Part shown: positions 38,839-57,850 of the stretch, piece by piece | How the letters are laid out: every line of letters begins with the position of its first letter | Position numbering within the stretch: the first letter of the stretch is position 1 | Sequence record: NC_070980.1 | DNA: 64,000 nt | From: Escherichia phage vB_EcoP_SU7 | Strand: one strand, 5' to 3' | Notes under the pieces: model-generated | What the model saw: only the letters and a program-made list of their open reading frames with translations | The model's database searches: none | What the model was told of the DNA's origin: nothing | Position numbers and translations under genes: made by a program

Positions 38839-39150
38839 CTACTTCTCCACCACAAAGAGGTTAACTTCAATGAAAGTTTCGTATTGTGTTGACTCCTGCT
38901 TACGGGTGTAGTAGAAATGACGACCTTCTAATGCACCTCCGTACTGAGTGGCACATCTTTTAACCATCTCTTTTATCACATCTACAACTGATTCGCCTTT
39001 CCACGGACGTAACCCCTGAGTTGGGACTTTTGCTGTACAGGTTACTTGTGTGTAACCTACATCTTGTAGAGATATCTCAAGAATCAGCTTTGCCCAAGCA
39101 TCAAAATTAAGCTTGGGGTTATATTTAACTTCAGTTTTGATATCAATCAT
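38839..39150 (-). CDS. Hypothetical protein
   Basis: 103-aa ORF whose ATG overlaps the stop of the polymerase C-terminal segment (TAATG). Confidence 0.4.
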   Translation of the reverse strand: MIDIKTEVKYNPKLNFDAWAKLILEISLQDVGYTQVTCTAKVPTQGLRPWKGESVVDVIKEMVKRCATQYGGALEGRHFYYTRKQESTQYETFIEVNLFVVEK

Positions 39151-39302
39151 TAGTGAGTATGATTCCAGTTTAATCCAATCTTACAATCTGATGCAAGAGG
39201 ACATTCCATCTTGAGGTATTCCCCTGCTTTACGAACACATTCTTCAGTGAGGGTACGAAGTTTGTTAACATCATCACGATGTACAGTGAACTGACCTTCA
39301 TC
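39150..39302 (-). CDS. DNA polymerase A C-terminal segment (putative exon 2)
   Basis: Encodes DEGQFTVHRDDVNKL...KIGLNWNHTH*, matching the family A polymerase C-terminus (post-motif-C region and terminal NW..H). Under 60 aa, so absent from the ORF track. Confidence 0.6.
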   Translation of the reverse strand, partial: DEGQFTVHRDDVNKLRTLTEECVRKAGEYLKMECPLASDCKIGLNWNHTH

Positions 39303-39909
39303 CATTCAGTTATTCCCAAATTACTTCGGGTGTCGGACTATATCATAACAGCATAGCTAATTTGCTGTTGTTGGCGCTTCGAGGGTTTCCCTGTTAACCC
39401 CCTACTCCCTTAGGATAGTCTCTACACTTTCCACTTCCGAATCCATCTACAACCGATTCCGAAGCTCACACCAAACTTCTCTGCAAGATGTACACCAGAG
39501 CATTCTGTTTCTAGCCAATAAAGCCTTGCAGCTTCTTGTCTATCTCCATTTCTTCCAGTGTTTGATTCTATTGCATGTTCTGAACCTTCAAGCATTTCTA
39601 AGTGCTCAAGATTGGAACAAGCCCTATTCTTGCATTTGTGATTTATTTCATAACCATCAGGAATAGAACCAAAAGATTCTTCCCAAACATATCTATGATA
39701 CATGACCCATTTGCCATCTATTACTTTTCTGAAATAACCATCTTTGTTAAGTTTGTGTGAGATAGGGATGATACACCCTGTTTCGGTTGTTTCCAAAACA
39801 AGAGTTTTCTTAGCCATATCATCTCCTAATAGCTTAGCTCGGTATTGCCCCCAACTTAATGGTAGGGTTTCACCGAGTTCACCAACTTTTACATGCACAA
39901 TGAAAGTTT
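39303..39909 (-). mobile_element. Intron-like insertion (candidate group I intron) carrying an HNH gene, splitting polA at motif C
   Basis: Upstream segment ends ...ATG CAT (U at the 5' junction); insertion ends ...TGAATG (terminal G); joining gives ...IDMH|DEGQF, restoring an HDE motif C. Core intron structure not verified. Confidence 0.45.
39422..39817 (-). CDS. HNH homing endonuclease (within the polA insertion)
   Basis: ATG 39817 with AGGAG SD; motif YEINHKCKNRACSNLEHLE. Confidence 0.7.
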   Translation of the reverse strand: MAKKTLVLETTETGCIIPISHKLNKDGYFRKVIDGKWVMYHRYVWEESFGSIPDGYEINHKCKNRACSNLEHLEMLEGSEHAIESNTGRNGDRQEAARLYWLETECSGVHLAEKFGVSFGIGCRWIRKWKV

Positions 39910-41604
39910 ATGCATGTCAATAACCTTCGCACAACGAACACCATCCCGCTCAATCCATTTATTGAGGAATAGCATTGCATACTTCATAACAATCGCCCCA
40001 GCGCTCTGTAAGAGTGTATTTAAGGCTTTATGGACCATAACCTTTCCAGTTGCATCTCTTCTCATTGTAATACGACGTCCATCCACACCGTAGATATATC
40101 CACTTTGCGCTTTCTCTGTCATACGTTCAATAAGGATTGCAATACAAGGGTTCTCTGCTAAGAATCTTGCTCTCATGATAGCCCCTTCGTCAGAGCCACC
40201 ACCTACAATACTTCCTAACTTAGCGTCACCTGCCCCATAGTTAAAGGCATAGATAAACGTTTTAGCATTATCACGAGTAGGAAGGCCAGCAAGTTTTTGG
40301 TTATGTGAGTGAATATCTCCTTCTAAAAGAATATCTCTATACATAACAGCAGAAGCTAGACCACGTTCAGCTTCTCGTTTCTTAGCCGGGTTGTTTTCTC
40401 GCTCTGCTTCAGCGAGCATCTCACGACATTCTTTAATAAGGTAGTGAGCTAGCATCCTCAGCTCAAGACCAGAGCCATCGTAACCTAAGAAGATTTCACG
40501 ACCAGCAGGAACATAGAACTTATAGGCACCTACAGGTTTGTCTTTCTTGCCCGGTTTTCCCACTTCGTAGATAATGTTAGTACCCTTTCGTACGTAACAC
40601 CCATCAGGGATATGGTTGGTAATGATGAAAGGATGGTTATGACTATCGTCTGAGGAATAGTCAGATTGAAAAAGACTGCGGCACTCGTGACCAAACAAAC
40701 CGCGAGAAGGAATATTAACAACAATGCGATGTTTAAAACGAAATGTCGGAGTAGCGCAGCTATTAGCTTCGGCGGACAACTTACCATCTTTACGTTCCTT
40801 GTCGATAAGCCCGCTAATCAAACCTAGCCTGTGAGCCGCTACAACGCGTCTCTTAAGCAAACTTCCTACACCCCCTAGCTCACCCCCAAGCCCCTCTTCA
40901 AGAGTCTCCTCAAGGTTTGTAGGGGCTGTGGGCCACTTGTTTGATGTAGCCAAAGCTTTTTTGATTTCATCAAAGGTTACAGGTTTCTTCCTATTCGGAT
41001 TAAGACCTAAACCACTGACGTAGGCTTTCATGTAGTTGACAGTGTGATAACGGAAATGTTTATCCAAAAATCTTCGGATATCAGCATCTATCATCTCCGC
41101 TGTCTGTTTCTCTTTAGCATTACCTCGAATCCAAGCAGAATACCATGCAGAGTATGTACCATACTTCTTCATAGCTCTACGGATTTCAAATGTATTCCAA
41201 GGTTTCTTAGAATAATTCCACTCTGGAGGTATGAAGCCTTCGTCCATCAAGGCTTCTTTGATACGTGCATCTTTCGATGGGTCGAAGTCTACATACTCAA
41301 CGCAAGTAAACGCCCCACCGATATCTTCTCTTTTAAGACCAACTCTGTCACAATAGAGCTGAGGCCACTTCTGTAAAGCACCTGACTTCTTAAAAGGTTT
41401 CGAATAAGTTGAACCATCCACCCGCATTTTGGGGAGGAGAGGAATCAGTTCTTTATCAATATTGACAATAATCTCTTTGAGAAGGTGAACAAACCACCGA
41501 GCGTTTCTTCTGTTGAAGTTGACTCCATGCTTCGCTTGTTTTGAGATTATATCAGCGACTGTCATCTCCGTTATGAAAGGTAACTTATCAGGGTTATCCA
41601 TCAC
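39889..41604 (-). CDS. DNA polymerase A, polymerase domain (T7 gp5-like; putative exon 1)
   Basis: Motif B region RDNAKTFIYAFNYGAGDAKLG and downstream LLQSAGAIVMKYAM; ORF stops 5 codons after DMH, immediately before motif C. Confidence 0.85.
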   Translation of the reverse strand: MMDNPDKLPFITEMTVADIISKQAKHGVNFNRRNARWFVHLLKEIIVNIDKELIPLLPKMRVDGSTYSKPFKKSGALQKWPQLYCDRVGLKREDIGGAFTCVEYVDFDPSKDARIKEALMDEGFIPPEWNYSKKPWNTFEIRRAMKKYGTYSAWYSAWIRGNAKEKQTAEMIDADIRRFLDKHFRYHTVNYMKAYVSGLGLNPNRKKPVTFDEIKKALATSNKWPTAPTNLEETLEEGLGGELGGVGSLLKRRVVAAHRLGLISGLIDKERKDGKLSAEANSCATPTFRFKHRIVVNIPSRGLFGHECRSLFQSDYSSDDSHNHPFIITNHIPDGCYVRKGTNIIYEVGKPGKKDKPVGAYKFYVPAGREIFLGYDGSGLELRMLAHYLIKECREMLAEAERENNPAKKREAERGLASAVMYRDILLEGDIHSHNQKLAGLPTRDNAKTFIYAFNYGAGDAKLGSIVGGGSDEGAIMRARFLAENPCIAILIERMTEKAQSGYIYGVDGRRITMRRDATGKVMVHKALNTLLQSAGAIVMKYAMLFLNKWIERDGVRCAKVIDMHKLSLCM

Positions 41605-41974: not shown

Positions 41975-42244
41975 TTACTCCACTGTCGGGAATGGTTTTA
42001 GGTTGTTCATGGCTGTACGAACATCAGCACAGATTTCAGGATCACGATAAGAGAGGAATTTACCATCCTTACCACGAATCATTACATTAGTCCGTGCTGT
42101 TTTATTAGGCAATAAAGAAATCCCTCCAATAAGATGGTTGGTAGGGTGTTGTCCTTGATTAACCTTGTAGTCATGAGTCTGAGCGTCACCATTAAAGAGA
42201 TGATCACGAATTTGGATTAAGCTAATCTTCATATTATGCACCAA
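41975..42244 (-). CDS. Hypothetical small protein (paralogue of 42234-42485)
   Basis: Shares KTARTNV(M/A)(I/L)RG(K/P)DGKF(L/I)S(Y/F)RD...NLKPFP with the adjacent ORF. Confidence 0.4.
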   Translation of the reverse strand: MVHNMKISLIQIRDHLFNGDAQTHDYKVNQGQHPTNHLIGGISLLPNKTARTNVMIRGKDGKFLSYRDPEICADVRTAMNNLKPFPTVE

Positions 42245-42485
42245 AATTAGGGAAAGGTTTCAGATTTTCAATAGACTTAGCAATACGCTTAGGAACAGCC
42301 TTATCACGGAAGGAGATGAACTTTCCATCAGGACCACGAAGGGCTACATTAGTACGAGCTGTTGTTTTGTTAAACTGAATCATCTCAACAGAGCTTGTAA
42401 CATTTTCTACAGGAAAAGTATAGCTCTCAGTTGTGTTCAGAGAAGGGAGGAAATCAGTTACAGTGATGTAAGTTACTTTAGACAT
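42234..42485 (-). CDS. Hypothetical small protein (paralogue of 41975-42244)
   Basis: ATG 42485 preferred; the track's GTG start at 42521 lies inside a terminator hairpin. Confidence 0.4.
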   Translation of the reverse strand: MSKVTYITVTDFLPSLNTTESYTFPVENVTSSVEMIQFNKTTARTNVALRGPDGKFISFRDKAVPKRIAKSIENLKPFPNFGA

Positions 42486-42515
42486 ATTTATTACCTTAGG
42501 TTCTATAAAAGAAAA

Positions 42516-42540
42516 GGCCACCCGAAATGGGTAGCCTTAT
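42516..42540 (-). terminator. Terminator-like hairpin (same family)
   Basis: GGCCACCC...GGGTAGCC stem (one mismatch) followed by T-run on the minus strand. Confidence 0.45.
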
Positions 42541-45202: not shown

Positions 45203-45850
45203 TTAACTCTCCAAAGTTTTCTTCAGGGCTGCCCACGAGATTGGGTAGAGTTTAGCCATCTCTTCGTCTAGAGATTGGGCAAACACTCGAACTTCATATT
45301 GAGCGTGAGATGAGAGTCGCTGACGACACAACTCAAACCAGCCATACAAAGAACCAGTCCAGTACCAAGTAGTTATCATACCTTGAGGCAAAACAAATCT
45401 AGCCTGTTCCGGAGCAATAAATTTAATCAATTCATCATAACTAGCAAGAGATGCTTCATACGCAGAGTTAAACAAAGCCAAAGCTTTTGCCTCCTCTTCC
45501 CCTTCAAGAAGCGCTCCAGAACCAGAGTGTAAATCATCTGGACGAGAGAAAATTTCTTTAGGTATGAAAATATCCACTGCTCCGTCTTTGTATCTACGAC
45601 TCATCTCATTCCAAGAGAATCCAACTTGATGTTTTTGTAGCTGTCGTGCGATTGCTATCGGGGCTTCACACCGGAAGCTTGCTTGTGGGTGACGAAAAGG
45701 GCTTACATGGCGTTCTCGAGCTAAGAAGTTAATAAGCCGAGTATCATTTTCTTTCAGCTCCTCCCTTTCTACTCCCATAGTTACACGAGCGGCATTTACC
45801 ACAGTAAGGTCTGATCCGAAGTTATCAATTAGTGAAGCTTTGATTGTCAT
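45203..45850 (-). CDS. thyX: Flavin-dependent thymidylate synthase (ThyX-like)
   Basis: ThyX-like ...FRHPQASFRCEAPIAIARQLQKHQVGFSWNEMSRRY; the usual RHR triad appears as KHQ here, but the alignment is by eye. Confidence 0.7.
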   Translation of the reverse strand: MTIKASLIDNFGSDLTVVNAARVTMGVEREELKENDTRLINFLARERHVSPFRHPQASFRCEAPIAIARQLQKHQVGFSWNEMSRRYKDGAVDIFIPKEIFSRPDDLHSGSGALLEGEEEAKALALFNSAYEASLASYDELIKFIAPEQARFVLPQGMITTWYWTGSLYGWFELCRQRLSSHAQYEVRVFAQSLDEEMAKLYPISWAALKKTLES

Positions 45851-46316
45851 TTATATAAATCTCCTTGACTTTATTATATTCCCTAGAGGCCTCTTCTACG
45901 GTTGAGAAGAGTCCTATATGCTTAGATTTAAATACAGCCCGATAAGCAATAGAACCACTTTTCCTTTTATGAACAGTTACTCCAATTACTCCAGTGGATA
46001 AGTTATTACTCTGTGCTACCCTATTAAGACTGTTTCCTGCTTTAGTAGTCCCTCTAAGATTCTCTCTTTTGTTGTTCAACCTGTTGCGGTCCAAGTGGTC
46101 TACCTCTTCAGGAAGCGAACCAGTGTCCCACCAGTAAGCAAGACGGTGAGCGTAATACTTAACACCTTTATAGATGATTCTCAAATACCCATTGGTATTT
46201 ACAGAACCAGCTATAGATCCTTTGTGTCCTTTTCCATAAGTTTTAACCCATCGGAAATCTCCAGTCAAAGGGTCGTAATCAAGAGCTTCTTTTATTGATA
46301 GGTCAATGTCATTCAT
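45825..46316 (-). CDS. HNH-AP2 homing endonuclease
   Basis: HNH_3 motif YAHRLAYWW...VDHLDRNRLNNKRENLR plus AP2-like C-terminal domain; overlaps the thyX start. Confidence 0.7.
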   Translation of the reverse strand: MNDIDLSIKEALDYDPLTGDFRWVKTYGKGHKGSIAGSVNTNGYLRIIYKGVKYYAHRLAYWWDTGSLPEEVDHLDRNRLNNKRENLRGTTKAGNSLNRVAQSNNLSTGVIGVTVHKRKSGSIAYRAVFKSKHIGLFSTVEEASREYNKVKEIYINDNQSFTN

Positions 46317-46331
46317 CCGTGAACTTCCTTA

Positions 46332-46607
46332 TTACTTTTTGTTCAGAGCTGTATCCAAAAAGGCTTTCAGGTTTGCTTCAGTTTGCATACCGGACAAGCT
46401 GTAATGAGCACCACTGTTCTTATCAGGGATGACAAAGGCTGGGATACTGCGAACACCATATTCAATGGCTCGCTCTCGACCATCACCTTCGGTGATATTT
46501 ACTTCTTCAACTTCTACGTTGTAATCATCTACAACCTTCTTAAACACAGGAGCCATAGCTGCACAAGGTGCACATGAATTACTATAAAACTTAATCACTT
46601 TACTCAT
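46332..46607 (-). CDS. Thioredoxin/glutaredoxin-fold protein
   Basis: ATG 46607; active-site SCAPC (CxxC) near the N-terminus, about 91 aa. Confidence 0.6.
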   Translation of the reverse strand: MSKVIKFYSNSCAPCAAMAPVFKKVVDDYNVEVEEVNITEGDGRERAIEYGVRSIPAFVIPDKNSGAHYSLSGMQTEANLKAFLDTALNKK

Positions 46608-46797
46608 TCTATTCCTTGTTAATAAACAGGTTGATATGACGCTGGGTAGCAGGAACAACAATAAAAGATTTATACTGACCTTTTGCTAAGTCATGAGCAA
46701 TCTTCTTTGTCTGACCAAGACCCATCACACAGCCACTAACGATAATGGCATGTGCTTGTAATTCTTCAGGTAGGTTTAGTTTCACTCTTTGGGTTCC

Positions 46798-46983
46798 TTA
46801 TAGCATACAAAGAATAATAACAAGAGGTAGTGTTATAGCAAAATGTACCAGAACAACACTACCTAGCTTGATAGCTTTAACATCCTCTTCTGCTGGGTTT
46901 TCTTTAATTGCTAAATTTCGAGCTTTATATATAACAGTACCAACTATTAACGACCACACGGCCCACACAATCAGTGAAATCAT
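46798..46983 (-). CDS. Small membrane protein (paralogue A)
   Basis: Two hydrophobic helices flanking ...KENPAEEDVKAIKLGS...; paralogous to 46993-47214. Confidence 0.4.
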   Translation of the reverse strand: MISLIVWAVWSLIVGTVIYKARNLAIKENPAEEDVKAIKLGSVVLVHFAITLPLVIILCML

Positions 46984-46992
46984 ATCAAACCC

Positions 46993-47214
46993 TTATGCAG
47001 TCAACAGGTGGAGAAGGAAAGGAATCACAATAGTACAAACTACCAGAGCGATGCTGCCATGTTTAATAGCTTTAGCTTCACTTGGATTTTCTTTAAGCAT
47101 CTGCTTCTGGGCCAGATAGACGATACCACCAATAATGATTGCCCAAAAAGACCATACGATTGCTGAAAACATATTCACATCCTTATAAAGAAGTTCGCCC
47201 CACCTCTTAAACAA
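46993..47214 (-). CDS. Small membrane protein (paralogue B)
   Basis: Same architecture (...KENPSEAKAIKHGS...). Confidence 0.4.
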   Translation of the reverse strand: MFKRWGELLYKDVNMFSAIVWSFWAIIIGGIVYLAQKQMLKENPSEAKAIKHGSIALVVCTIVIPFLLHLLTA

Positions 47215-47235
47215 AGAGACAGGGCGGAGGTTTGA

Positions 47236-47811
47236 TTAGTAAGACACATCACCACTAGAGTGGGACATGTTGCTCTTGACGAAGTAACAGAACTTGCCAA
47301 GACCTTCATTAATTTCTTGAAGCATACTCTGGTCCACTGGATAGGTGCACAAGTCTGAATCAAACTCATCCATCTTCTCAATGATACACATAAGAGTCAT
47401 GCACATGTCGGAAAGCATACCGTCCATGTCAAGATCAGCGTTACCTTCTCGGAACCAAGCATGACCTAAATAATTACTAGCAGTAGCATCCACCTTAACA
47501 CAATGAAAGCGCATACGCTCTGCTATTCGGTCGCCTGCCTCACGAGCATAATCTTCTAGTTCATCGAACATACCATGAACACCTTGGAAACCAGCTCCAG
47601 AGACGTTCCAGTGGTAGTTCTTTGCTTTGATGTGTAGAAGTTCAAGGTTAGCTTGCACACCACACAAGATGTGTTCTAAGCTGTTACCGCTAATCAGTTT
47701 ATTCATTCCCTCAAGACGAGAGATAGAAGAGTCAGTAGTAGAGAATGGGTTGCTAGAACCCACTCGTGTTAGTTCTGGTAAGTCGAAGACATTATTATGC
47801 ATTAGGTGCAT
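47236..47811 (-). CDS. Dps-like ferritin (DNA-protection/ferroxidase family)
   Basis: HWNVSGAGFQGVHGMFDELEDYAREAGDRIAERM matches the Dps ferroxidase-centre pattern. Confidence 0.65.
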   Translation of the reverse strand: MHLMHNNVFDLPELTRVGSSNPFSTTDSSISRLEGMNKLISGNSLEHILCGVQANLELLHIKAKNYHWNVSGAGFQGVHGMFDELEDYAREAGDRIAERMRFHCVKVDATASNYLGHAWFREGNADLDMDGMLSDMCMTLMCIIEKMDEFDSDLCTYPVDQSMLQEINEGLGKFCYFVKSNMSHSSGDVSY

Positions 47812-48194: not shown

Positions 48195-48401
48195 CTAGTA
48201 ATAAACCTTGCTGGATATGAATCCAGCACTGTTATGGATATTTTCAATCCAACGATGAATCTCCACCTTTTCAGCGAGACCTAAAGCTTTTGTAGCTTTC
48301 TTAGCAAGACGAGCTTCTTGTCGAGTGTCGAATAATTTAAGACAATCACCACCAAGGTCTTTGTTAGCCCATTTAACGCGAACTGCCCATAATTTAGCCA
48401 T
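48195..48401 (-). CDS. Hypothetical small protein (paralogue)
   Basis: W.VRVKW...TRQEAR..KK pattern shared with 48401-48613. Confidence 0.35.
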   Translation of the reverse strand: MAKLWAVRVKWANKDLGGDCLKLFDTRQEARLAKKATKALGLAEKVEIHRWIENIHNSAGFISSKVYY

Positions 48402-48613
48402 TAGTAATGTACCTTTCCGCTGATATAGAAACGACCTGATTTAAAGTCTTGAGCTTTGTGGATAGTGATCTTATTAATTGTGCTTTCACAACTTAACAAG
48501 AACTTCTTATGAGCGCGAGCTTCTTGACGGGTGTTTCTAATACCCATCGACTCTGCACCACTACTCCAGCGAATACGAACTACCCAACGTCTTTTCATTG
48601 TTCCAAACTCCAT
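48401..48613 (-). CDS. Hypothetical small protein (paralogue)
   Basis: Tandem paralogue of the downstream ORF. Confidence 0.35.
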   Translation of the reverse strand: MEFGTMKRRWVVRIRWSSGAESMGIRNTRQEARAHKKFLLSCESTINKITIHKAQDFKSGRFYISGKVHY

Positions 48614-48616
48614 CAG

Positions 48617-49150
48617 TTATACGCCTTTAGAAGCAACTACACCATTACTACCGTTATAACGACCCTTCACTGCATAGGAATCATCACCAGCGTGAGAGTG
48701 TTCAAACATAACCATTTGACCAACACGCATCCCAGCACGAACTCGTAAGCTGTGATTGTGGGTAACGTTATGGAACTCAAAGGTTAGCTTACTGCTATTA
48801 AACCCTGCATCAGCCCAACCAGCATGTAAGTGGTTCAAACCACAACGAGCCATAGAGGAGCGAAGTACAAACAGACTTGAGATGTTATCTGGAAGGTTAA
48901 ACTCTTCCATTGAGTGAGCTAAGAAGAACTGTCCCGGAGTGATGACAATGCCATCTTCAGGGATTTTCACTTCTTTCCACTTGAGGTTTTCTTTAGCATC
49001 AATGTCAACAATACCATCAGCCTGTTCTTCAACAAGGATAGTATCACCAATACGGATATCCACGCTAGCAGCGTTAACATATTTATGCTCCGCATCTAAA
49101 AAGCCATTATCAATAACGCTGTGTAATTCTTGAGAACCTAAAAGACTCAT
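48617..49150 (-). CDS. dcd: dCTP deaminase (dUTPase fold)
   Basis: 177 aa; N-terminal ...DNGFLDAEHKYVNAASVDIRIGD... typical of dCTP deaminase/dUTPase-fold enzymes. Confidence 0.7.
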   Translation of the reverse strand: MSLLGSQELHSVIDNGFLDAEHKYVNAASVDIRIGDTILVEEQADGIVDIDAKENLKWKEVKIPEDGIVITPGQFFLAHSMEEFNLPDNISSLFVLRSSMARCGLNHLHAGWADAGFNSSKLTFEFHNVTHNHSLRVRAGMRVGQMVMFEHSHAGDDSYAVKGRYNGSNGVVASKGV

Positions 49151-50634
49151 GAGTTTCTGTTTCCTTGTACAGATGATGCCAAATTATTAATCATATTACG
49201 AGCTGTTTCACGAGATAGTGTAACACCTGCTAGGTTGTTGTGAAGCTCACCAGATAGCTCACGAGCTGCTGCTCGTAGTTCTGCACCAAGTGCAGTGTCA
49301 GAGTGAGCTAGACCATTACGACGACCAACAGGTCGAGGAGCTTCGTTAGCGTCATTAGCTAATGATGCAAAACCAATATGAGCAGCTTCACGAGCCGCTA
49401 TAGCTGATACTCGATCTTCTGTAGGGGTTGGCAAATCACCAACTTCTACACGTTCAATATCACTAGCACGTAGACCCTGAACAACAGAGCTTACTGTTTC
49501 CCATGAACGACGAGAACGCTGCAAATCATCCATTGACGGAGATGGAATAGGACGAGCAGTTCCTCCTTGGACATGCCATGTACGAGTATCCATTCCAGAA
49601 GAGTGTGCACTACCAAAACTACCAGTGAAAGTATCACGAGGTCTTTCATGAGGTTGTACGTTATACCCTACAACACCCCCTCGAACAGTTCGAGAAGTTT
49701 CTTCATTAAAAGCTTGAAGATCTCGTCTGTTAGTTCCCGGAGTCCAAGGTCGTGTAATTGCTTCAGCACCTATAGTGGTTAATCCACTAGACCATTCTGT
49801 CTGTAGGTTAACTTCCTCGTCCAGATAACTACGACCCCTTTCCTGAGGAATGTTTAATGTAGTTTCCATCATCTTCAGGGTATAATGACGACGCTGATTC
49901 TGATATAAATTTACACCAGCCATAGGCCCAACTAAATCACTGATCAGATGAACTTCTGGTTCACCAAAAGCTCCCATTGCAAGGTGCATGTACTCAGTAG
50001 AACTGCTGTAAACTGCAACTGTTGCTTCAGGCCACTTTTTGTGGACATACTTCATGTCACGACTTGTCACCACAGGGATATCATTAGTATATGCCATTGC
50101 AAACATACCTTCGTTCGACACATACATATCATCGAGAGTCATAAACCCTTGACAAATCATAGGGAAGCGACCGCTCAGAGTATCCATATCCAGAGGGAGG
50201 TTAATCATCATCTGAATCTTCACTTCGTCAATCTCCACTTCCAAAATCTCTTGGAAAGTGAAAAGTGCTTCAGCGTAGGTTGTTCCACTGATAGGCTGAA
50301 CTAGTCGAGATGTAACTTGAAGCCCCTTACTCTCTGTCCAAGACAAGAAGTTGTCAAGGAACAGTGCAGCATTACTTACGTTAGCAGGGCTGTTTTCCTG
50401 ACGAGTGTTCCAACGGAATCCTCCTTGAACTAGGAAGATATCAACATCATTCGGAGTTCGATTTTGGAAGAACGTATCACGGATAGCACCACCTGCAATG
50501 ACAGGATAGATACCATCAGGGACTACGTTATCTCTGATCAGATTGCGAATCAGATCAAGCCCTACGCTGAGGGCTTCTCCTTCTTGAAGGTTTAATTCAG
50601 ACAATGGAATCTTAATCATTTCTACATTTTCCAA
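49147..50634 (-). CDS. Putative Pol-beta superfamily nucleotidyltransferase
   Basis: IAGGAIRD...(13 aa)...DVDIFL fits the hG[GS]...DxD minimal nucleotidyltransferase pattern (CCA-adding-like head); C-terminal about 150 aa low-complexity Ser/Arg/Ala-rich. Confidence 0.4.
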
Positions 50635-51170
50635 TTTAGAGATGGGGGATTCTTATAATCAAATCCAGCCATTTGACAAAGACACATGTAAACTTTAACT
50701 GTCAAGTTAACGTCTTGCTCACAATAGGTGAACATGTCTTCAGTGAATGCGTCCCATGCCTCCTCCTGTTCTCCATAATCTCCTTTCAGCTCCCCAAGAA
50801 ACTCGCCCCATTGTTTGAGGCCGTGACCACGAGGGCCATGTCTAGGGTCGCCTTTGGGGTATTCTGGACTATCACCAATACGGTCAGGCTTGAGATATCT
50901 ACTCAGGCACAAAGTATCGAAGACGTTAAAGCGAAAAGGTATCACATGAGAATAAAACTTAAACAAAGCAGGAAGGTCAAAATCAATAATATTGTGACCT
51001 ATTACTACATCAGCTTCTTTCAGTTTGTGTAGTGCTTCTTCAATTTGGTGAGGGCGATACCCCCACCGCTCTCCAGATAATACATCAAATATCCAGATAC
51101 ACCAGACATTCTGAATACCATCATAGAGATTATCCCCCTCGATATCAAACGCATACAGTTTCTTTACCAC
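50622..51170 (-). CDS. 3'-5' exonuclease domain protein (T7 gp5 N-terminal domain-like), separate from the polymerase ORF
   Basis: Exo I FDIEGDN, Exo [16 protein letters not shown], Exo III YCEQD; ends with a stop, about 9 kb from the polymerase-domain ORF. Confidence 0.7.
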
Positions 51171-52954
51171 GGACGTGCCTCCCCTTCTTGTGCAAGTAAG
51201 GAAGCTGCATCCTCTCCATTGGTAACGGTAAAAGGATGCTCTTCATCAACTTCATGATCTTCTCGTTCTACAAGACGACCTGTTTCATTGATGTATTTGG
51301 TATAGCAAACCCCTGTCTGTCCATAGTTACGCTCTTTGAGCAGTCGTATGATTGACAAGTTTTTACCTAACCCATCCGCTTGTTTGTTACGTTCAAAACC
51401 AATAATACACTGACACCAGCGCATCAATGAACGTGAACCAGTAAACTGTACTTCTTTAACCTGACCACCTTCTTCGTGGGGTGCACCACCTGCCGGAGCG
51501 TTCAAGTGAGATAATACAAAAGCAGTGAAGTCTAATTCCTTACACATACCAGCAAGCTCTGAAGCAATCTTGCTGATTTCTGTGTTTACCTCAGATGGGG
51601 TTAAGTGAGATACCAATGCAGTGATGTTATCAAGAATGATAAATTTACACTGATTCTCAACTACCCAAAAGCGAATACACTGCTTAATGTCTTCCCACTC
51701 GTTCTGCCCAAAGTTGTCATACAAGAAAAACTTATCAGCGTATCGAAGTGCTTCATCTCGTAGCTGGCTTTCTTCGTACTCAACATCTGGTCGGTGGAAT
51801 GGAATAGATGCAGATTTACCTGCAATGTTCTTAACAGACATGCCTACCTTCTCTTCCAAGAAGAAGCCACCACCATTAAAACCATGCTCAAGGCAAAGCC
51901 ATGCTACTAGTTCGTGTGCGATTAAGGTTTTACCTGAACCAACACCACCGCCGATTGCAACCATCTCTCCCCAACGAATACCAAAGGTCATGTCGTTAAG
52001 AGTTTTCCACGGATAAGGAATACCCCATTCCGCTTTCTTCAGAGCATCTTCGAGGCAATCAAAAACTGTAACAGCTCCAGCAGGAGATTCCCGCTTAGCT
52101 GAATATTTCAGATTGTTGAAAAGCTCTTGACCTCTCCCTGCAAGTAACATGTCGTTTGCATCTTTGATTTCCTTTTCTTGTCCGTTATAAGTGAACGTAC
52201 CTTTTGGAATCCTTGCAAACTTAACATGCGGGTACAGAGAACGACCCTTAGTTAAAGCAATCTCACCTGCATCATCATTGTCCATGCAGAGTACAATCTC
52301 CTCGAAACCATTAATAAAATCACGGTTTCTTGATAATACAGAAGAGATTGAACCTGCACCGAACGGAAGAGAGACGCAAGCAGGTTTGATGTTAGTTGCG
52401 TTTGTAAACGCGGTAAGTACGTGGAACCCAGACATACAAGAGAGAGGGTCTTCAAAGATGAAGAGTTTCTTGTTGTATACGTCACCACGTTGTGCTTGAG
52501 CCATACCAAACAAGTCGGCTTCTTTCACATTACCTACATAATAGAACTTCTTGCTGTCTAGAAGTTTTACTTCATATCCAACAATGTTCCCATCACGTTC
52601 ACGAGGGAAGAAGTAGCTGTCAGGAGTTTGACCATCTGTTTGGCTTAAACCGATACGGCATCCATAACGTTCAGATACAGCTTTAGGAATTAAGCGACGA
52701 GTCAACTCTCCCTGAGGAAGCTCTAAGCAATCGTCTAAGACTTCTCGGAGTTCTTCAGGGGACAGCTCTTTCTTTTCATTAGGAGTGGGCGTCGTTCCTT
52801 TCTCGAAGATTTCATACGCACCACATCTGTTACATGAACCCCACTCCTCACCGGACTCTTCATTTCGGAAGAGAATCATGTGATTGCGGGTCTTATCACG
52901 ACCATGAGAGATACACTCTTTACAGCCCGTGTCTCCCAAAATGATCTTTGACAT
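51164..52954 (-). CDS. Primase-helicase (T7 gp4-like)
   Basis: N-terminal Zn-binding CKEC...CNRCG, helicase Walker [10 protein letters not shown]; 596 aa. Confidence 0.85.
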
Positions 52955-54131: not shown

Positions 54132-55367
54132 TTACAGAGTTACTGCTACTTCGCTACCTTCAACATTGACAGACTCTAACTTGCGAGGGTTATGAATCTG
54201 GACTGGATTGACCGGAACGTTCCAACCACTGCGGTAGAAGTTACGACCATCACAGAACAGGATGACATTGGCAGACATTGCATTCGGTTGCAGGTTGTTG
54301 TGGACATGACGGATATTTGCAATCCAGTAGCCACGAGACAAAGTGTAGCCAGTAGGTGCATTACGAATAGTTTGAGTATTCATCTGACCTTCCAGTTGCA
54401 TTTCTTCAGGAACCACATCAACTGAATCAATCGGCTGTGCTACTTGTCCTTCCAGTGCAAAGTTTTCATCATCAGCACTTTCACTGTCAGCAACCAATTC
54501 ACCGTCCCCGTCTTCAATCGGAGTCTGGTAAACCACTTTATACTGAGGGGTATAGAGAGGGTTCTGAGCTTTAACAAACTCAAGAATGTTGTGACGATAA
54601 GTATCCAGAGTCGTACCAGTCAGTCCCGGTGCTGTGTTAACTTCCAGTACCCATGCTTCTTGACCTTTGGTGATAATATCAACTGCACCGAAATCCAGAC
54701 CCATTGATTCAACAGCTTTCACCGCATTGATCAGAGAGGCATCATTCGGAGCATCTGTGAAGGAGCTTGAGTAAACCCAGCCAGTGTGGTGATTACGAAT
54801 ATCTTCACGATAGTTAGGGTCTTCGCGATAACCATTGCGACGAATCTTCTTCTGAACATAGGTGATTACACCTTTGAACACATGGACACGCCATTCACGA
54901 CGTGGGCCTTGAATACCTTTAGTGTACAGCTCAGCCTGATCAACTGTAGTGTTAGGCTCTACAACAACAATACCTGAACCAGAGTGACCAGTCAGCTCGT
55001 GACGCTCATACACAATGTTGCCAGCGTTTGACCACTCCTGAGCAGTCTCTTGAACATCTGTGTATTCCACAGTTTTAACACCTGCTTGGTCCATCACACT
55101 GAAAGCACGACGTTTGTTCGCTGCCATATGTAAGGCTGCGGTACGGTTAAGGACGGTTGCAGAACCAAAGAATGATTCAGGATAGCGACGGTTCCCGTAG
55201 TTAACAACCACATCATCTTCACGAGAACGCCAGCGGCTATTCTCTGAAAGAAGCCCCATCACGTTAGCATTGATGCGTTCATCACGGATAGTATCACTGA
55301 TAGCAGATACCAGAGCGTTAACAGAATCAGACGGGCCATACGGAAGAACACGGATACGAGTAGTCAT
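54132..55367 (-). CDS. ATP-grasp ligase (RimK/glutathione-synthetase-like)
   Basis: ATP-grasp pattern: ...HSGSGIVVV..., ...WRVHVF..., ...EAWVLEVNTAPGL... Confidence 0.6.
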   Translation of the reverse strand: MTTRIRVLPYGPSDSVNALVSAISDTIRDERINANVMGLLSENSRWRSREDDVVVNYGNRRYPESFFGSATVLNRTAALHMAANKRRAFSVMDQAGVKTVEYTDVQETAQEWSNAGNIVYERHELTGHSGSGIVVVEPNTTVDQAELYTKGIQGPRREWRVHVFKGVITYVQKKIRRNGYREDPNYREDIRNHHTGWVYSSSFTDAPNDASLINAVKAVESMGLDFGAVDIITKGQEAWVLEVNTAPGLTGTTLDTYRHNILEFVKAQNPLYTPQYKVVYQTPIEDGDGELVADSESADDENFALEGQVAQPIDSVDVVPEEMQLEGQMNTQTIRNAPTGYTLSRGYWIANIRHVHNNLQPNAMSANVILFCDGRNFYRSGWNVPVNPVQIHNPRKLESVNVEGSEVAVTL

Positions 55368-55369
55368 TT

Positions 55370-55600
55370 TTAGATACCTTTTAGTTTAAGAATTTCGTTA
55401 CGACAGGATTGAATTTTAGCTTCGATTGCCCAATACTCAGCGAACATTTCGTCTTCTTGGGCATCGCTTGGAGAGTCGATTAAGTTAAAAGCAAACGGAT
55501 ACAGCTTTCGCTGCTCCGTTACCAGTTGTTGAAGTCGGAGTTGTTGATACTCCAGCATTGTCAGGTGAGGCTTAGCTCCCTTGCTTGACATGAGGCTCAA
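55370..55600 (-). CDS. Hypothetical small protein
   Basis: 76-aa ORF. Confidence 0.3.
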   Translation of the reverse strand: MSLMSSKGAKPHLTMLEYQQLRLQQLVTEQRKLYPFAFNLIDSPSDAQEDEMFAEYWAIEAKIQSCRNEILKLKGI

Positions 55601-55805
55601 CTTTAATCCCCTTCATTTTAACATAGTCAGCCAACACGTTGTTGATAACGGTTGGAAAAGGGATTTCTACTGGAGAATCAACCAGCTTCCCAATACCTTC
55701 TTGCATCCACTTCTGAATTGCTCGGAGGTTATCACATCCTGTGCTTGTCATCGGAATACGGCGGGTAGTTACCACGTTATCCAACATCAGTTTACGAACT
55801 TCCAT
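55572..55805 (-). CDS. Hypothetical small protein
   Basis: 77-aa ORF. Confidence 0.3.
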   Translation of the reverse strand: MEVRKLMLDNVVTTRRIPMTSTGCDNLRAIQKWMQEGIGKLVDSPVEIPFPTVINNVLADYVKMKGIKVEPHVKQGS

Positions 55806-55816
55806 AACTATACCTC

Positions 55817-57850
55817 TTAGTGTTTACCTTTACAGTAATCTGAATTACAGATCACCCTGTTTTCTTTGTTCAGTGAGCAAGTTTCTGCATCACGCCACGG
55901 AATTTGTTTATAACAGACTGCACAAAACCCAATTGAAGTCCAGAGGGCTTTTGTGAACTCGGCTGTTCGTTGTCCATCATAGCTGACAACTGTTTTTCGG
56001 AGAGAGGTTGACTTTTTTGGAAATGTCTCCGCTTTCTCAGCGGGTACCTCCTTTGGGGAATTCTTTGGACCATAAACAGAGATGGCATAAGTATCACCAC
56101 CACGTTTTTCCAAATACGAATTAGGAACATCTGCAAGTGTAATATCCCCTGAACGTTTTGCTGAGCTAACCATTACGATCATACGGCTAAGCATACGTTC
56201 ATCAACACGAACAGCTACTTCAGGACGACGTGGGTTGGTTGTGTCTACTGCTTTAGTCCAAATATAACCCTCAGATAGAGTAACATTCTTTACTTTATCT
56301 TTGATTTCTTTGGAGCAGATATAACAAACATCTTCACCACGAAGTTTACTCATTTCGTTGTCAAACTCGAAATCAGTCTTGACTTCACCACAGACAGCAC
56401 ATACGCCCAAAGGCACATCTTCTTCATCTTCAGAGATTTTAGATAACGCTTCGAAGCATTCTGGATGCCAGTATGCTTGATAAGCAAACACAGCCTTACG
56501 AGCATCTTTCCAGTCAATGTGCTTATCACAACCACCACAATCACCATGAGAGTGAGATTCCCAGAACTTACGAGTGACTTCTACACCATTTTTAGTGATG
56601 AAGGAGTCCTCTGCATCAAAAGGGATGTCATCATCAAAATCAGCAGTAGTGCTTTGAGGCTCCTTATCTGTAGCATCAACAAACAGCCCTGAAGTTAGTA
56701 CGAGGCGAATCATACTGTCCACTTCGGAGATACAAGCAATCGTCCCGCGATATACTACCTTTGGGTTTTCAAGAGCCTTAAGATATTCATCTTTGGCTAC
56801 GTTGTGAACATCCCCTTCGACATACTCTTGGGCTTTATCGTCGTAGATGTAACCAATCATCTTACCACGATCTGTGTTGTTATAAGCATGGAACTCGTGA
56901 GGAATAATATCCACACGACCATCACGACGATAAGGAAGACCACGATCGGCAGCCAGTTTGTTCTGGTCTTCAATCGCTTTACGACGACGAATGTCTCCGC
57001 TTGTCACGCCGGGCTTGTCGTCTTTGTTTCCGTAAATGTCGCTTGTGCTGCTGCTTGATTTGTTTGTCTGTTGGTTCTGATATAGAGAGGAGTTCGAGTA
57101 ATAGCCGCCCCAGCGACTCGTTATCGTAAAAACCGGAAGCTTGTGCTCCACCTCTTGAACCAGAGTCATACGACTGTTAGACACATCAAAGATATACTCA
57201 GTTCCCACTTTACATTCGAAGTGGTCATTGATACGGTTCTTGTGGGATTTAGAACGCTCTAAAATCCACATAAGCATAGCTTCTTCAGAAGCCCCAAACC
57301 AATCTAAACCACAACGGGCTAGGTGGAAAGGACGCTCATCATTACGGATAATGTGAAGCGTGTTGTCTTTAGCATCATGCCAAATCAAAGTGAATGCACC
57401 ATCCAGTTTTTGGATAGTCTCTGCTGCTCCAATGGTATTAATTGAGTGGCAGATGTTTTCACTATCAACTTCGAAACGCTTACTGTCAGGAAGGAGATCT
57501 TGATCTAACAGGGTTCCATTATGAACCAGAGTAATATCCCCGTGAGTAAATGGGTGAGCATTTCGAGCATTGACAGCCCCACGAGTGGCATGTCGGCTGT
57601 GACCAACAATCCACGAAGGAGGAACTACGTAGTTCGTAAGCCCTTTGGTAATATTTGTATATTCTGTCTGGAGCATAAAAGCATAAGAAGGAAGAGCTTC
57701 TTTATAAGAGAAGACTTGCTTTTCACCTTTACGCTGACCAAACACACCAGTTGAGTGCTGTCCACGGAAAACACCAGCATACAGAAGTTGGTTGAAAATA
57801 TCCAAATCTGTTGAGGTCATGTTGCCGCCAGCTAATACGATACCACAAAT
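55817..57850 (-). CDS. Class II (Ntn-type) glutamine amidotransferase with C-terminal Cys-rich domain; predicted AUU start
   Basis: In-frame upstream of the track ATG (57820) the sequence reads TAG AAA ATT TGT GGT ATC = stop-K-I-C-G-I-V, i.e. the conserved (M)CGIV nucleophile; the only start placing Cys at position 2 is ATT 57848-57850, with AGGTGG SD 8 nt upstream. Downstream RGQHSTGV, GHSRHATRG, NAHPF, HNG motifs. Confidence 0.6.
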   Translation of the reverse strand: MCGIVLAGGNMTSTDLDIFNQLLYAGVFRGQHSTGVFGQRKGEKQVFSYKEALPSYAFMLQTEYTNITKGLTNYVVPPSWIVGHSRHATRGAVNARNAHPFTHGDITLVHNGTLLDQDLLPDSKRFEVDSENICHSINTIGAAETIQKLDGAFTLIWHDAKDNTLHIIRNDERPFHLARCGLDWFGASEEAMLMWILERSKSHKNRINDHFECKVGTEYIFDVSNSRMTLVQEVEHKLPVFTITSRWGGYYSNSSLYQNQQTNKSSSSTSDIYGNKDDKPGVTSGDIRRRKAIEDQNKLAADRGLPYRRDGRVDIIPHEFHAYNNTDRGKMIGYIYDDKAQEYVEGDVHNVAKDEYLKALENPKVVYRGTIACISEVDSMIRLVLTSGLFVDATDKEPQSTTADFDDDIPFDAEDSFITKNGVEVTRKFWESHSHGDCGGCDKHIDWKDARKAVFAYQAYWHPECFEALSKISEDEEDVPLGVCAVCGEVKTDFEFDNEMSKLRGEDVCYICSKEIKDKVKNVTLSEGYIWTKAVDTTNPRRPEVAVRVDERMLSRMIVMVSSAKRSGDITLADVPNSYLEKRGGDTYAISVYGPKNSPKEVPAEKAETFPKKSTSLRKTVVSYDGQRTAEFTKALWTSIGFCAVCYKQIPWRDAETCSLNKENRVICNSDYCKGKH

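Follow-up and report, generated by a model that had tools for sequence, protein, structure and literature searches.

A conserved minimal thioredoxin gene in a phiEco32-like Escherichia phage: a candidate redox donor for nucleotide supply in a genome whose T7-like polymerase carries a shortened thumb insertion

Coupling of a phage-encoded thioredoxin to a T7-like DNA polymerase, as a processivity factor of the kind that T7 borrows from its host, was proposed in 2021 for exactly the C3-phage group considered here (Corban & Ramsey, PMC7881722), and the idea is thus not new; a demonstrated phage-encoded processivity thioredoxin was, however, not found in the literature. Phage Syn5 likewise combines its own thioredoxin with a T7-like polymerase, and the same two hypotheses, reductant of ribonucleotide reductase (RNR) versus processivity factor, have been weighed for it; the Syn5 protein is redox-active and boosted genome replication, and RNR was judged the likelier partner (10.1101/2025.10.05.680603). 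On the polymerase side, Czernecki et al. (2023) reported that split T7-like PolAs have a truncated thioredoxin-binding domain (TBD), with a 32-aa deletion in the S-SBP1-like cluster 5. For T7 itself, the thioredoxin contacts named in an MD study of the crystal complex are, polymerase residue first, E319-K90, E330-R73, T327-I75, V329-R73, P325-A93 and Y265-I72; the study also ties the segment that holds Y265 and the basic loop K268-K290 to thioredoxin-dependent DNA contact. Among C3 phages, the SU10 paper counts thioredoxin among the small number of genes that all sequenced members share, and its authors detected the homologue gp65 by mass spectrometry in PEG-precipitated lysate; because this was lysate and not purified virions, the detection shows expression only. 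Other phages carry T4 NrdC-type proteins, glutaredoxins or NrdH-like proteins, which resemble the protein described below in being small (70-90 aa), minimal thioredoxin-fold members of a nucleotide-metabolism module; ours differs from such RNR-associated redoxins in that it is thioredoxin-type in sequence and in that Kuraviruses have no RNR of their own.

The window analyzed here, the whole stretch of 64,000 nucleotides from Escherichia phage vB_EcoP_SU7 (NC_070980.1), comes from a Kuravirus (Gordonclarkvirinae; phiEco32-like E. coli podophages of C3 morphotype), as judged from the 5 kb around the thioredoxin gene (74-82% coverage, 85-91% identity), and its gene order is the same in the annotated relative vB_EcoP_WFI101126. 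An earlier note, made from the sequence alone, had placed a phage-encoded CxxC thioredoxin at 46332-46607, and this gene is real, with matches to Pfam PF00085 and PHROG 22, a Trx1 fold and the motif C12-A-P-C15. The gene and its start region comprise the following features.

46332..46607, minus strand: thioredoxin gene, 91 aa, ATG to stop (Pfam, PHROG and PDB matches, AF2 model)
46613..46617, minus strand: Shine-Dalgarno-like AAGGA, 5 nt upstream of the thioredoxin ATG (read directly from the sequence)
46609..46785, minus strand: ORF upstream of thioredoxin, whose stop lies 1 nt before the thioredoxin ATG (from the sequence)

Translation of the ORF (46607..46332, minus strand, 91 aa) begins MSKVIKFYSNSCAPCAAM..., and the N-terminal sequence of the 91-aa protein is MSKVIKFYSNSCAPCAAMAPVF.... 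According to the ORF listing the frame can be extended to a TTG at 46661; since all homologues are 90-91 aa long, we take the ATG as the start. A search of all window ORFs found no second thioredoxin-like one. The gene has been annotated as a thioredoxin since the phiEco32 genome record ('thiol-disulfide isomerase and thioredoxin'), and tblastn recovered it in 122 phage records, mostly Kuraviruses and other groups of C3 morphotype. Identity to the window protein amounts to 74-93% in Kuraviruses and to 35-43% in the Proteus Privateer-like, Cronobacter GAP52/009 and Salmonella 7-11 phages; three further tblastn records are weak thioredoxin matches outside the C3 groups. Beyond the C3 clade, 80 thioredoxin-type loci in IMG/VR belong to unrelated phages, and none has a similar polymerase within 10 kb. 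These observations confirm the ORF as a genuine, conserved gene in this phiEco32-like phage of E. coli. The thioredoxins of phiEco32, SU10 (gp65) and Privateer (QIN94863) are its orthologues and lie in the same genomic neighborhood; the window copy differs from them in having an HNH endonuclease gene just downstream and in nothing else substantive. This HNH_3 gene (45825..46316, minus strand) lies between thioredoxin and thyX and overlaps the thyX start; it looks like the insertion of a free-standing homing endonuclease, because WFI101126 has an unrelated 204-nt ORF in its place.

Both sequence and predicted structure assign the protein to the thioredoxin family. It matches Pfam Thioredoxin (PF00085) at E=3.8e-13 and 49.8 bits against a cutoff of 23.5, as well as PHROG 22, 'thioredoxin domain', at E=2e-12, a family that PHROGs files under nucleotide metabolism. 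The closest solved structures by phmmer against the PDB are thioredoxins of the E. coli Trx1 type (E about 1e-8), aligned over Trx residues 24-106; because the alignment begins at residue 24, the N-terminal beta1-alpha1 is missing from the phage protein, whose N-terminus is some 20 residues shorter than that of E. coli Trx1 and which shares 33% identity with it over 82 aligned residues. An AF2 model (pLDDT 79.6) has a minimal b-a-b-a-b-(b)-a fold, and its best Foldseek matches in the PDB are E. coli Trx1 (TM about 0.76-0.78), the thioredoxin chain of the T7 polymerase complex among them. A glutaredoxin or NrdH identity was considered and rejected (Pfam Glutaredoxin 17.7 bits, below cutoff; NrdH E=0.0036).

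At the level of residues, the phage protein both keeps and departs from what characterizes E. coli TrxA, its best match in sequence and fold. The active site C12-A-P-C15 corresponds to C32-G-P-C35 of E. coli, with A13 at G33 and S11 at W31; the cis-Pro loop R53-S54-I55-P56 corresponds to R73-G74-I75-P76, P56 being the cis-Pro; and G73 corresponds to G92. The CxPC motif, the R-x-(I/V)-P loop and G73 are invariant down to about 35% identity across the Kuravirus, Privateer, Cronobacter and 7-11 groups, and R53, P56 and G73 never vary among the C3-phage homologues. Unlike TrxA, the protein lacks beta1-alpha1 and has CAPC, serine for W31, K6 at D26, E35 at K57, serine for G74 and L71 at K90. It scores below the NCBIfam equivalog cutoffs for TIGR01068, NF006898 and NF008229 (47.7, 37.4 and 42.8 bits vs 96.8, 138 and 125) and thus departs from canonical TrxA and TrxC in these scores as well as in the missing beta1-alpha1 and in the lysine that replaces the buried Asp26. 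Given Lys at D26, the absence of W31 and the sub-cutoff scores, the protein need not have canonical activity or be recognized by E. coli TrxB. The charged D26/K57 pair beside the active site is present with opposite charges (Lys6 and Glu35), and Lys6 is invariant across all C3-phage homologues; the residue pattern suggests that the pair has been charge-swapped rather than lost.

The genes around that of the thioredoxin encode ThyX, PhoH, a dCTP deaminase and a Dps-like protein.

48617..49150, minus strand: dCTP deaminase, part of the nucleotide-metabolism neighborhood
47236..47811, minus strand: Dps/ferritin-like protein, a C3-phage core gene co-occurring with thioredoxin
45203..45850, minus strand: flavin-dependent thymidylate synthase ThyX, downstream of thioredoxin in the same predicted transcription unit
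47196..47226, minus strand: terminator-like hairpin, 13 bp stem, upstream of the thioredoxin unit
42514..42538, minus strand: terminator-like hairpin, 10 bp stem, between the thioredoxin/ThyX/PhoH unit and the polymerase unit

The same stretch of the genome holds three tandem pairs of paralogous minus-strand ORFs, recognized by pairwise blastp: 46798..46983/46993..47214 (E=7e-16), 48195..48401/48401..48613 (4e-10) and 41975..42244/42234..42521 (2e-15). The first of these, just upstream of the thioredoxin unit, looks on inspection of its hydrophobic sequence like a pair of two-pass membrane proteins.

With moderate confidence, we propose that the phage thioredoxin is a redox-active donor in a nucleotide-supply module and that it acts on the host reductase. 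The minimal thioredoxin would belong to a middle-gene module together with dCTP deaminase, ThyX, a dNMP kinase and the Dps-like protein; it would be reduced by host thioredoxin reductase and would pass its electrons to a class I RNR. Lacking a phage-encoded reductase, a Kuravirus would have host NrdAB as the target, and the additional electron supply would increase the yield of dNTPs while phage DNA is replicated. The proposal builds on the observed gene with its fold, conserved CxPC and cis-Pro, on the gene context and on the expression of the SU10 homologue, from which the redox activity, the reductase that recharges the protein and its target are extrapolated. Thioredoxin is not known to need its cysteines in supporting T7 processivity; for that reason, the strict retention of both cysteines in the phage protein points to redox use. 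The conserved cysteines and the K6/E35 swap fit a redox function without proving it.

Further indications come from the redoxins of related phages. Privateer, which encodes T4-like NrdA and NrdB, has the gene order dCTP deaminase, thioredoxin (QIN94863) and, two genes on, Dps. In a metagenomic lineage with the same split polymerase (L091; polymerase 52% identical), the start of nrdB-nrdA is overlapped by the gene of a 72-aa Thioredoxin_3 protein, which resembles the window thioredoxin weakly (pairwise E=7e-4); in two others with that polymerase (L092 and L089), nrdA-nrdB directly follows a glutaredoxin gene. In L090, again a metagenomic relative with that polymerase, a 70-aa CGPC mini-thioredoxin is encoded just downstream of a dCTP deaminase/dUTPase gene, with one small ORF between the two. 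No redoxin was seen in lineages without a class I RNR in view, namely PaP3 (whole genome), L088 (nrdDG only), L093 and L096. The small redoxins of the clade therefore follow class I RNR and not the polymerase insertion described below, in a small sample of about eleven lineages, mostly with ±10 kb in view. A redoxin without an RNR in view also occurs in 7-11 (28 kb seen) and in L090, and the Kuraviruses are an outright exception to the pattern, as they keep the thioredoxin without any RNR: neither the window nor a complete Kuravirus genome contains nrdA, nrdB or nrdD. This is what speaks against the RNR reading, in that the proposed target has to be an enzyme of the host. Host RNR is already served by Trx1 and Grx1, and a benefit from one more electron donor beside them is assumed in our proposal. 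The earlier note had mentioned service to redox enzymes such as a host RNR as its second option; the gene context favors this part of it over processivity, and it is weakened by the lack of a Kuravirus RNR beside the gene.

The exception made by the Kuraviruses can conceivably be read in another way. Without an RNR of their own, these phages might use the thioredoxin for general protection against thiol or oxidative stress, or on some other target, perhaps together with the Dps-like ferritin in guarding replicating phage DNA, and in any case not specifically for RNR. In all C3 phages the core set includes both thioredoxin and the Dps-like protein, encoded a short distance apart, and the Privateer authors place the thioredoxin gene under stress response. 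We nevertheless consider this unlikely, because no specific partner can be named, because the host thioredoxin and glutaredoxin systems are already abundant and because the redoxins of relatives adjoin nrdAB or dcd and not Dps.

A further gene cluster is shared with relatives. An ATP-grasp enzyme (54132..55367) and a class II glutamine amidotransferase (55817..57820) lie in a minus-strand cluster at 54132..57820 and further downstream, with neighbors annotated in relatives as COOH-NH2 ligase and gamma-glutamyl cyclotransferase; the ATP-grasp/amidotransferase cluster is common to Privateer, 7-11 and PaP3-like phages. An Rfam search at gathering thresholds found no RNA family, tRNA included, on either strand of the 64 kb, and the tRNA-Arg annotated in WFI101126 falls outside the part of the genome that the window covers.

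The processivity idea, which was the main claim of the earlier note, depends on the replication genes of the phage. The T7-like replication module that the note had described in the same gene arm is indeed there, and it comprises a T7-gp5-like PolA, a gp4-like primase-helicase and a separate exonuclease.

39150..41604, minus strand: PolA, T7-like family A DNA polymerase, whole gene (T7 gp5 best by sequence and fold)
39910..41604, minus strand: first coding segment of the polymerase, residues 1-565, ending ...VIDMH within motif C
39303..39909, minus strand: intervening sequence that splits the polymerase gene, 607 nt
39422..39898, minus strand: HNH endonuclease ORF inside the intervening sequence
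39314..39421, minus strand: sub-threshold group I intron match, RF00028, 26 bits, E=1.5e-4 (Rfam, search of the interrupted region alone)
39150..39302, minus strand: second coding segment of the polymerase, DEGQFTV...NWNHTH, from motif C onward
50622..51170, minus strand: separate 3'-5' exonuclease gene (split-off exo domain of T7-like PolA)
51164..52954, minus strand: T7 gp4-like primase-helicase

The best PDB sequence match of PolA is T7 gp5 (E=2e-29). A structure was obtained by modelling P0009, an intact homologue with 99% identity, from 81 aligned sequences; the model reached a pLDDT of 92.8, its top 27 Foldseek matches are all T7 gp5, and the Foldseek E-value is about 1e-25 for T7 gp5 vs about 1e-16 for Bst Pol I. 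Because the exonuclease is encoded apart from the polymerase, the enzyme is a 'split T7-like PolA' in the sense of Czernecki et al. (2023). It resembles the polymerases of that study in having separate exo and pol genes and in a shortened insertion, about 23 aa shorter than the T7 TBD, and differs from them in that the Kuravirus lineage has its own thioredoxin gene and the window polymerase is interrupted by HNH-containing sequence. The gene is uninterrupted in WFI101126, whereas the window copy is broken inside motif C (..VIDMH / DEGQ..), and the intervening sequence probably represents an intron that splices itself and encodes a homing endonuclease. Such introns have been reported for polymerase genes of T7-like phages.

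A second gene of the replication block had to be considered as the possible real polymerase. This is a 495-aa 'nucleotidyltransferase' (PHROG 12715; 49147..50634, minus strand) that adjoins the exonuclease gene. It was rejected, as neither Pfam nor the PDB gave a match for it, as it varies strongly among Kuraviruses, and as 39150..41604 encodes a complete T7-like PolA. The protein shares 88% identity with that of one Kuravirus locus (L007), against only 31-39% over parts of its length with four others, which makes its gene hypervariable within an otherwise conserved replication block.

To look for a thioredoxin-binding loop in the polymerase thumb, as the earlier note had suggested, gives a qualified yes.

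41287..41445, minus strand: shortened TBD-homologous thumb insertion, polymerase residues 54-106 (alignment, predicted structure)

The insertion of about 53 aa (IPLLPKMRVDGSTYSKPFKKSGALQKWPQLYCDRVGLKREDIGGAFTCVEYVD) lies between helices H and H1, exactly where T7 has its 76-aa TBD and where E. coli Klenow has no insertion (AHEIAGE|EFNLSS). It aligns with T7 residues of about 285-333, that is, with the C-terminal two thirds of the TBD, including FKKP and GAPYTPVEH, and in this alignment T100, V102 and E103 of the phage polymerase correspond to T7 T327, V329 and E330, with C101 at P328. Since an insertion is present, the objection that the polymerase has no thioredoxin-binding insertion does not hold. 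The window polymerase has no counterpart of T7 residues from about 258 to 284 (some 23-25 residues), which include Y265 and the greater part of the basic 'backwards loop' K268-K290. AF2 predicts what is left as a unit that is ordered on its own, composed of a strand (59-66), a helix (78-87) and a strand (98-104), at a pLDDT of about 92.

On this basis the phage thioredoxin might sit on the shortened TBD of the split polymerase as a processivity cofactor, replacing or supplementing the host protein and perhaps having a redox role as well. A T7-like contact between the two is sterically conceivable from the residues aligned: the polymerase is nearest to T7 gp5 by sequence and fold, T100, V102 and E103 match the T7 residues that contact I75 and R73 of thioredoxin, and the phage thioredoxin keeps R53, I55, P56 and G73 (= R73, I75, P76 and G92). 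Both genes occur in every phage of C3 morphotype, and the hypothesis is already in print for these phages, as mentioned above. There are, however, several points against it. First, the insertion is found in all 120 polymerase homologues retrieved (33-99% identity), with the KPF and GGPF(T/S)x(V/I) motifs kept, and this includes the polymerases of the Pseudomonas PaP3/LUZ24 group; in PaP3, the one phage checked over its complete genome, profile and phmmer searches of all ORFs found no thioredoxin. A phage-encoded partner is therefore not what the insertion evolved for. Second, the equivalent of E330 is tryptophan in Privateer and 7-11, both of which have a thioredoxin, as well as in many others, although R53 of the thioredoxin is constant. 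Thus, across the 120 homologues neither the insertion nor its contact residues track the presence of a thioredoxin. Third, the segment with Y265 and the basic loop, which in T7 is tied to DNA contact, is the very one that is absent, and the predicted mini-domain would be ordered without a partner. Fourth, the phage thioredoxin has G74S, K90L and W31S at or near what is the interface in T7, and its gene is not adjacent to that of the polymerase but 4.7 kb away, in a different predicted unit (strong terminator-like hairpins at 47226..47196 and 42538..42514). Docking of related pairs points in the same direction: AF2 docked no host thioredoxins on another split T7-like PolA (Czernecki et al. 2023), and AF3 gave no support for the Syn5 thioredoxin on its polymerase (10.1101/2025.10.05.680603). 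A processivity role is thus not favored by the comparisons made, and we regard it as doubtful. Of the original claim, the phage thioredoxin, the T7-like polymerase and a TBD insertion have stood; the insertion turned out to be shortened and independent of the phage thioredoxin.

A cysteine (AFTCVEY; C101, 41293..41313, minus strand) stands beside the T327 equivalent in many Kuravirus polymerases, whereas this position is alanine or valine in other Kuravirus subclades and alanine, glycine or proline in other genera. Its interest lies in the mixed disulfide that it might form with a thioredoxin, and proponents of a processivity role could count the frequency of the cysteine among Kuraviruses in its favor. 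In the strongest form of that role, the phage thioredoxin would be a dedicated processivity subunit on TBD strand 98-104 that makes replication independent of host trxA, possibly by way of a mixed disulfide between Cys101 and its own Cys12; such a tether could apply to those Kuraviruses that have Cys101 beside the T327 equivalent. We consider this version quite improbable.

The conservation of the insertion in lineages without phage redoxins would also fit a third possibility, namely that the polymerase binds host thioredoxin, as in T7, with the phage protein being irrelevant to fork mechanics. The conserved strand matches the part of the T7 TBD that touches the active-site loop of thioredoxin. 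Literature on trxA dependence of any Kuravirus was, however, not found, the related split polymerase docked no host thioredoxin in AF2, and the insertion is predicted to fold autonomously. In our view, this possibility is a very doubtful one. The confidences we attach to all these readings overlap, because the protein could have a dual function.

Taken together, we prefer the redox donor for nucleotide supply. The thioredoxin gene, the processivity hypothesis and the truncated TBD have all been described before, so that no new kind of element is claimed here. Syn5 differs from the Kuravirus in that it encodes its own RNR, and its thioredoxin was assayed for redox activity and by gene deletion. 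Should the Kuravirus thioredoxin be a polymerase subunit after all, it would be the first processivity factor of the thioredoxin type to be encoded by a virus, and this would explain why a phage of a thioredoxin-rich host keeps its own copy. If instead it feeds host RNR, it would be one more ordinary case of a phage boosting dNTP supply. Two observations are of use beyond this locus: the polymerases of the clade carry a truncated TBD that is conserved throughout and does not depend on a phage-encoded thioredoxin, and the small redoxins of the clade track class I RNR genes.
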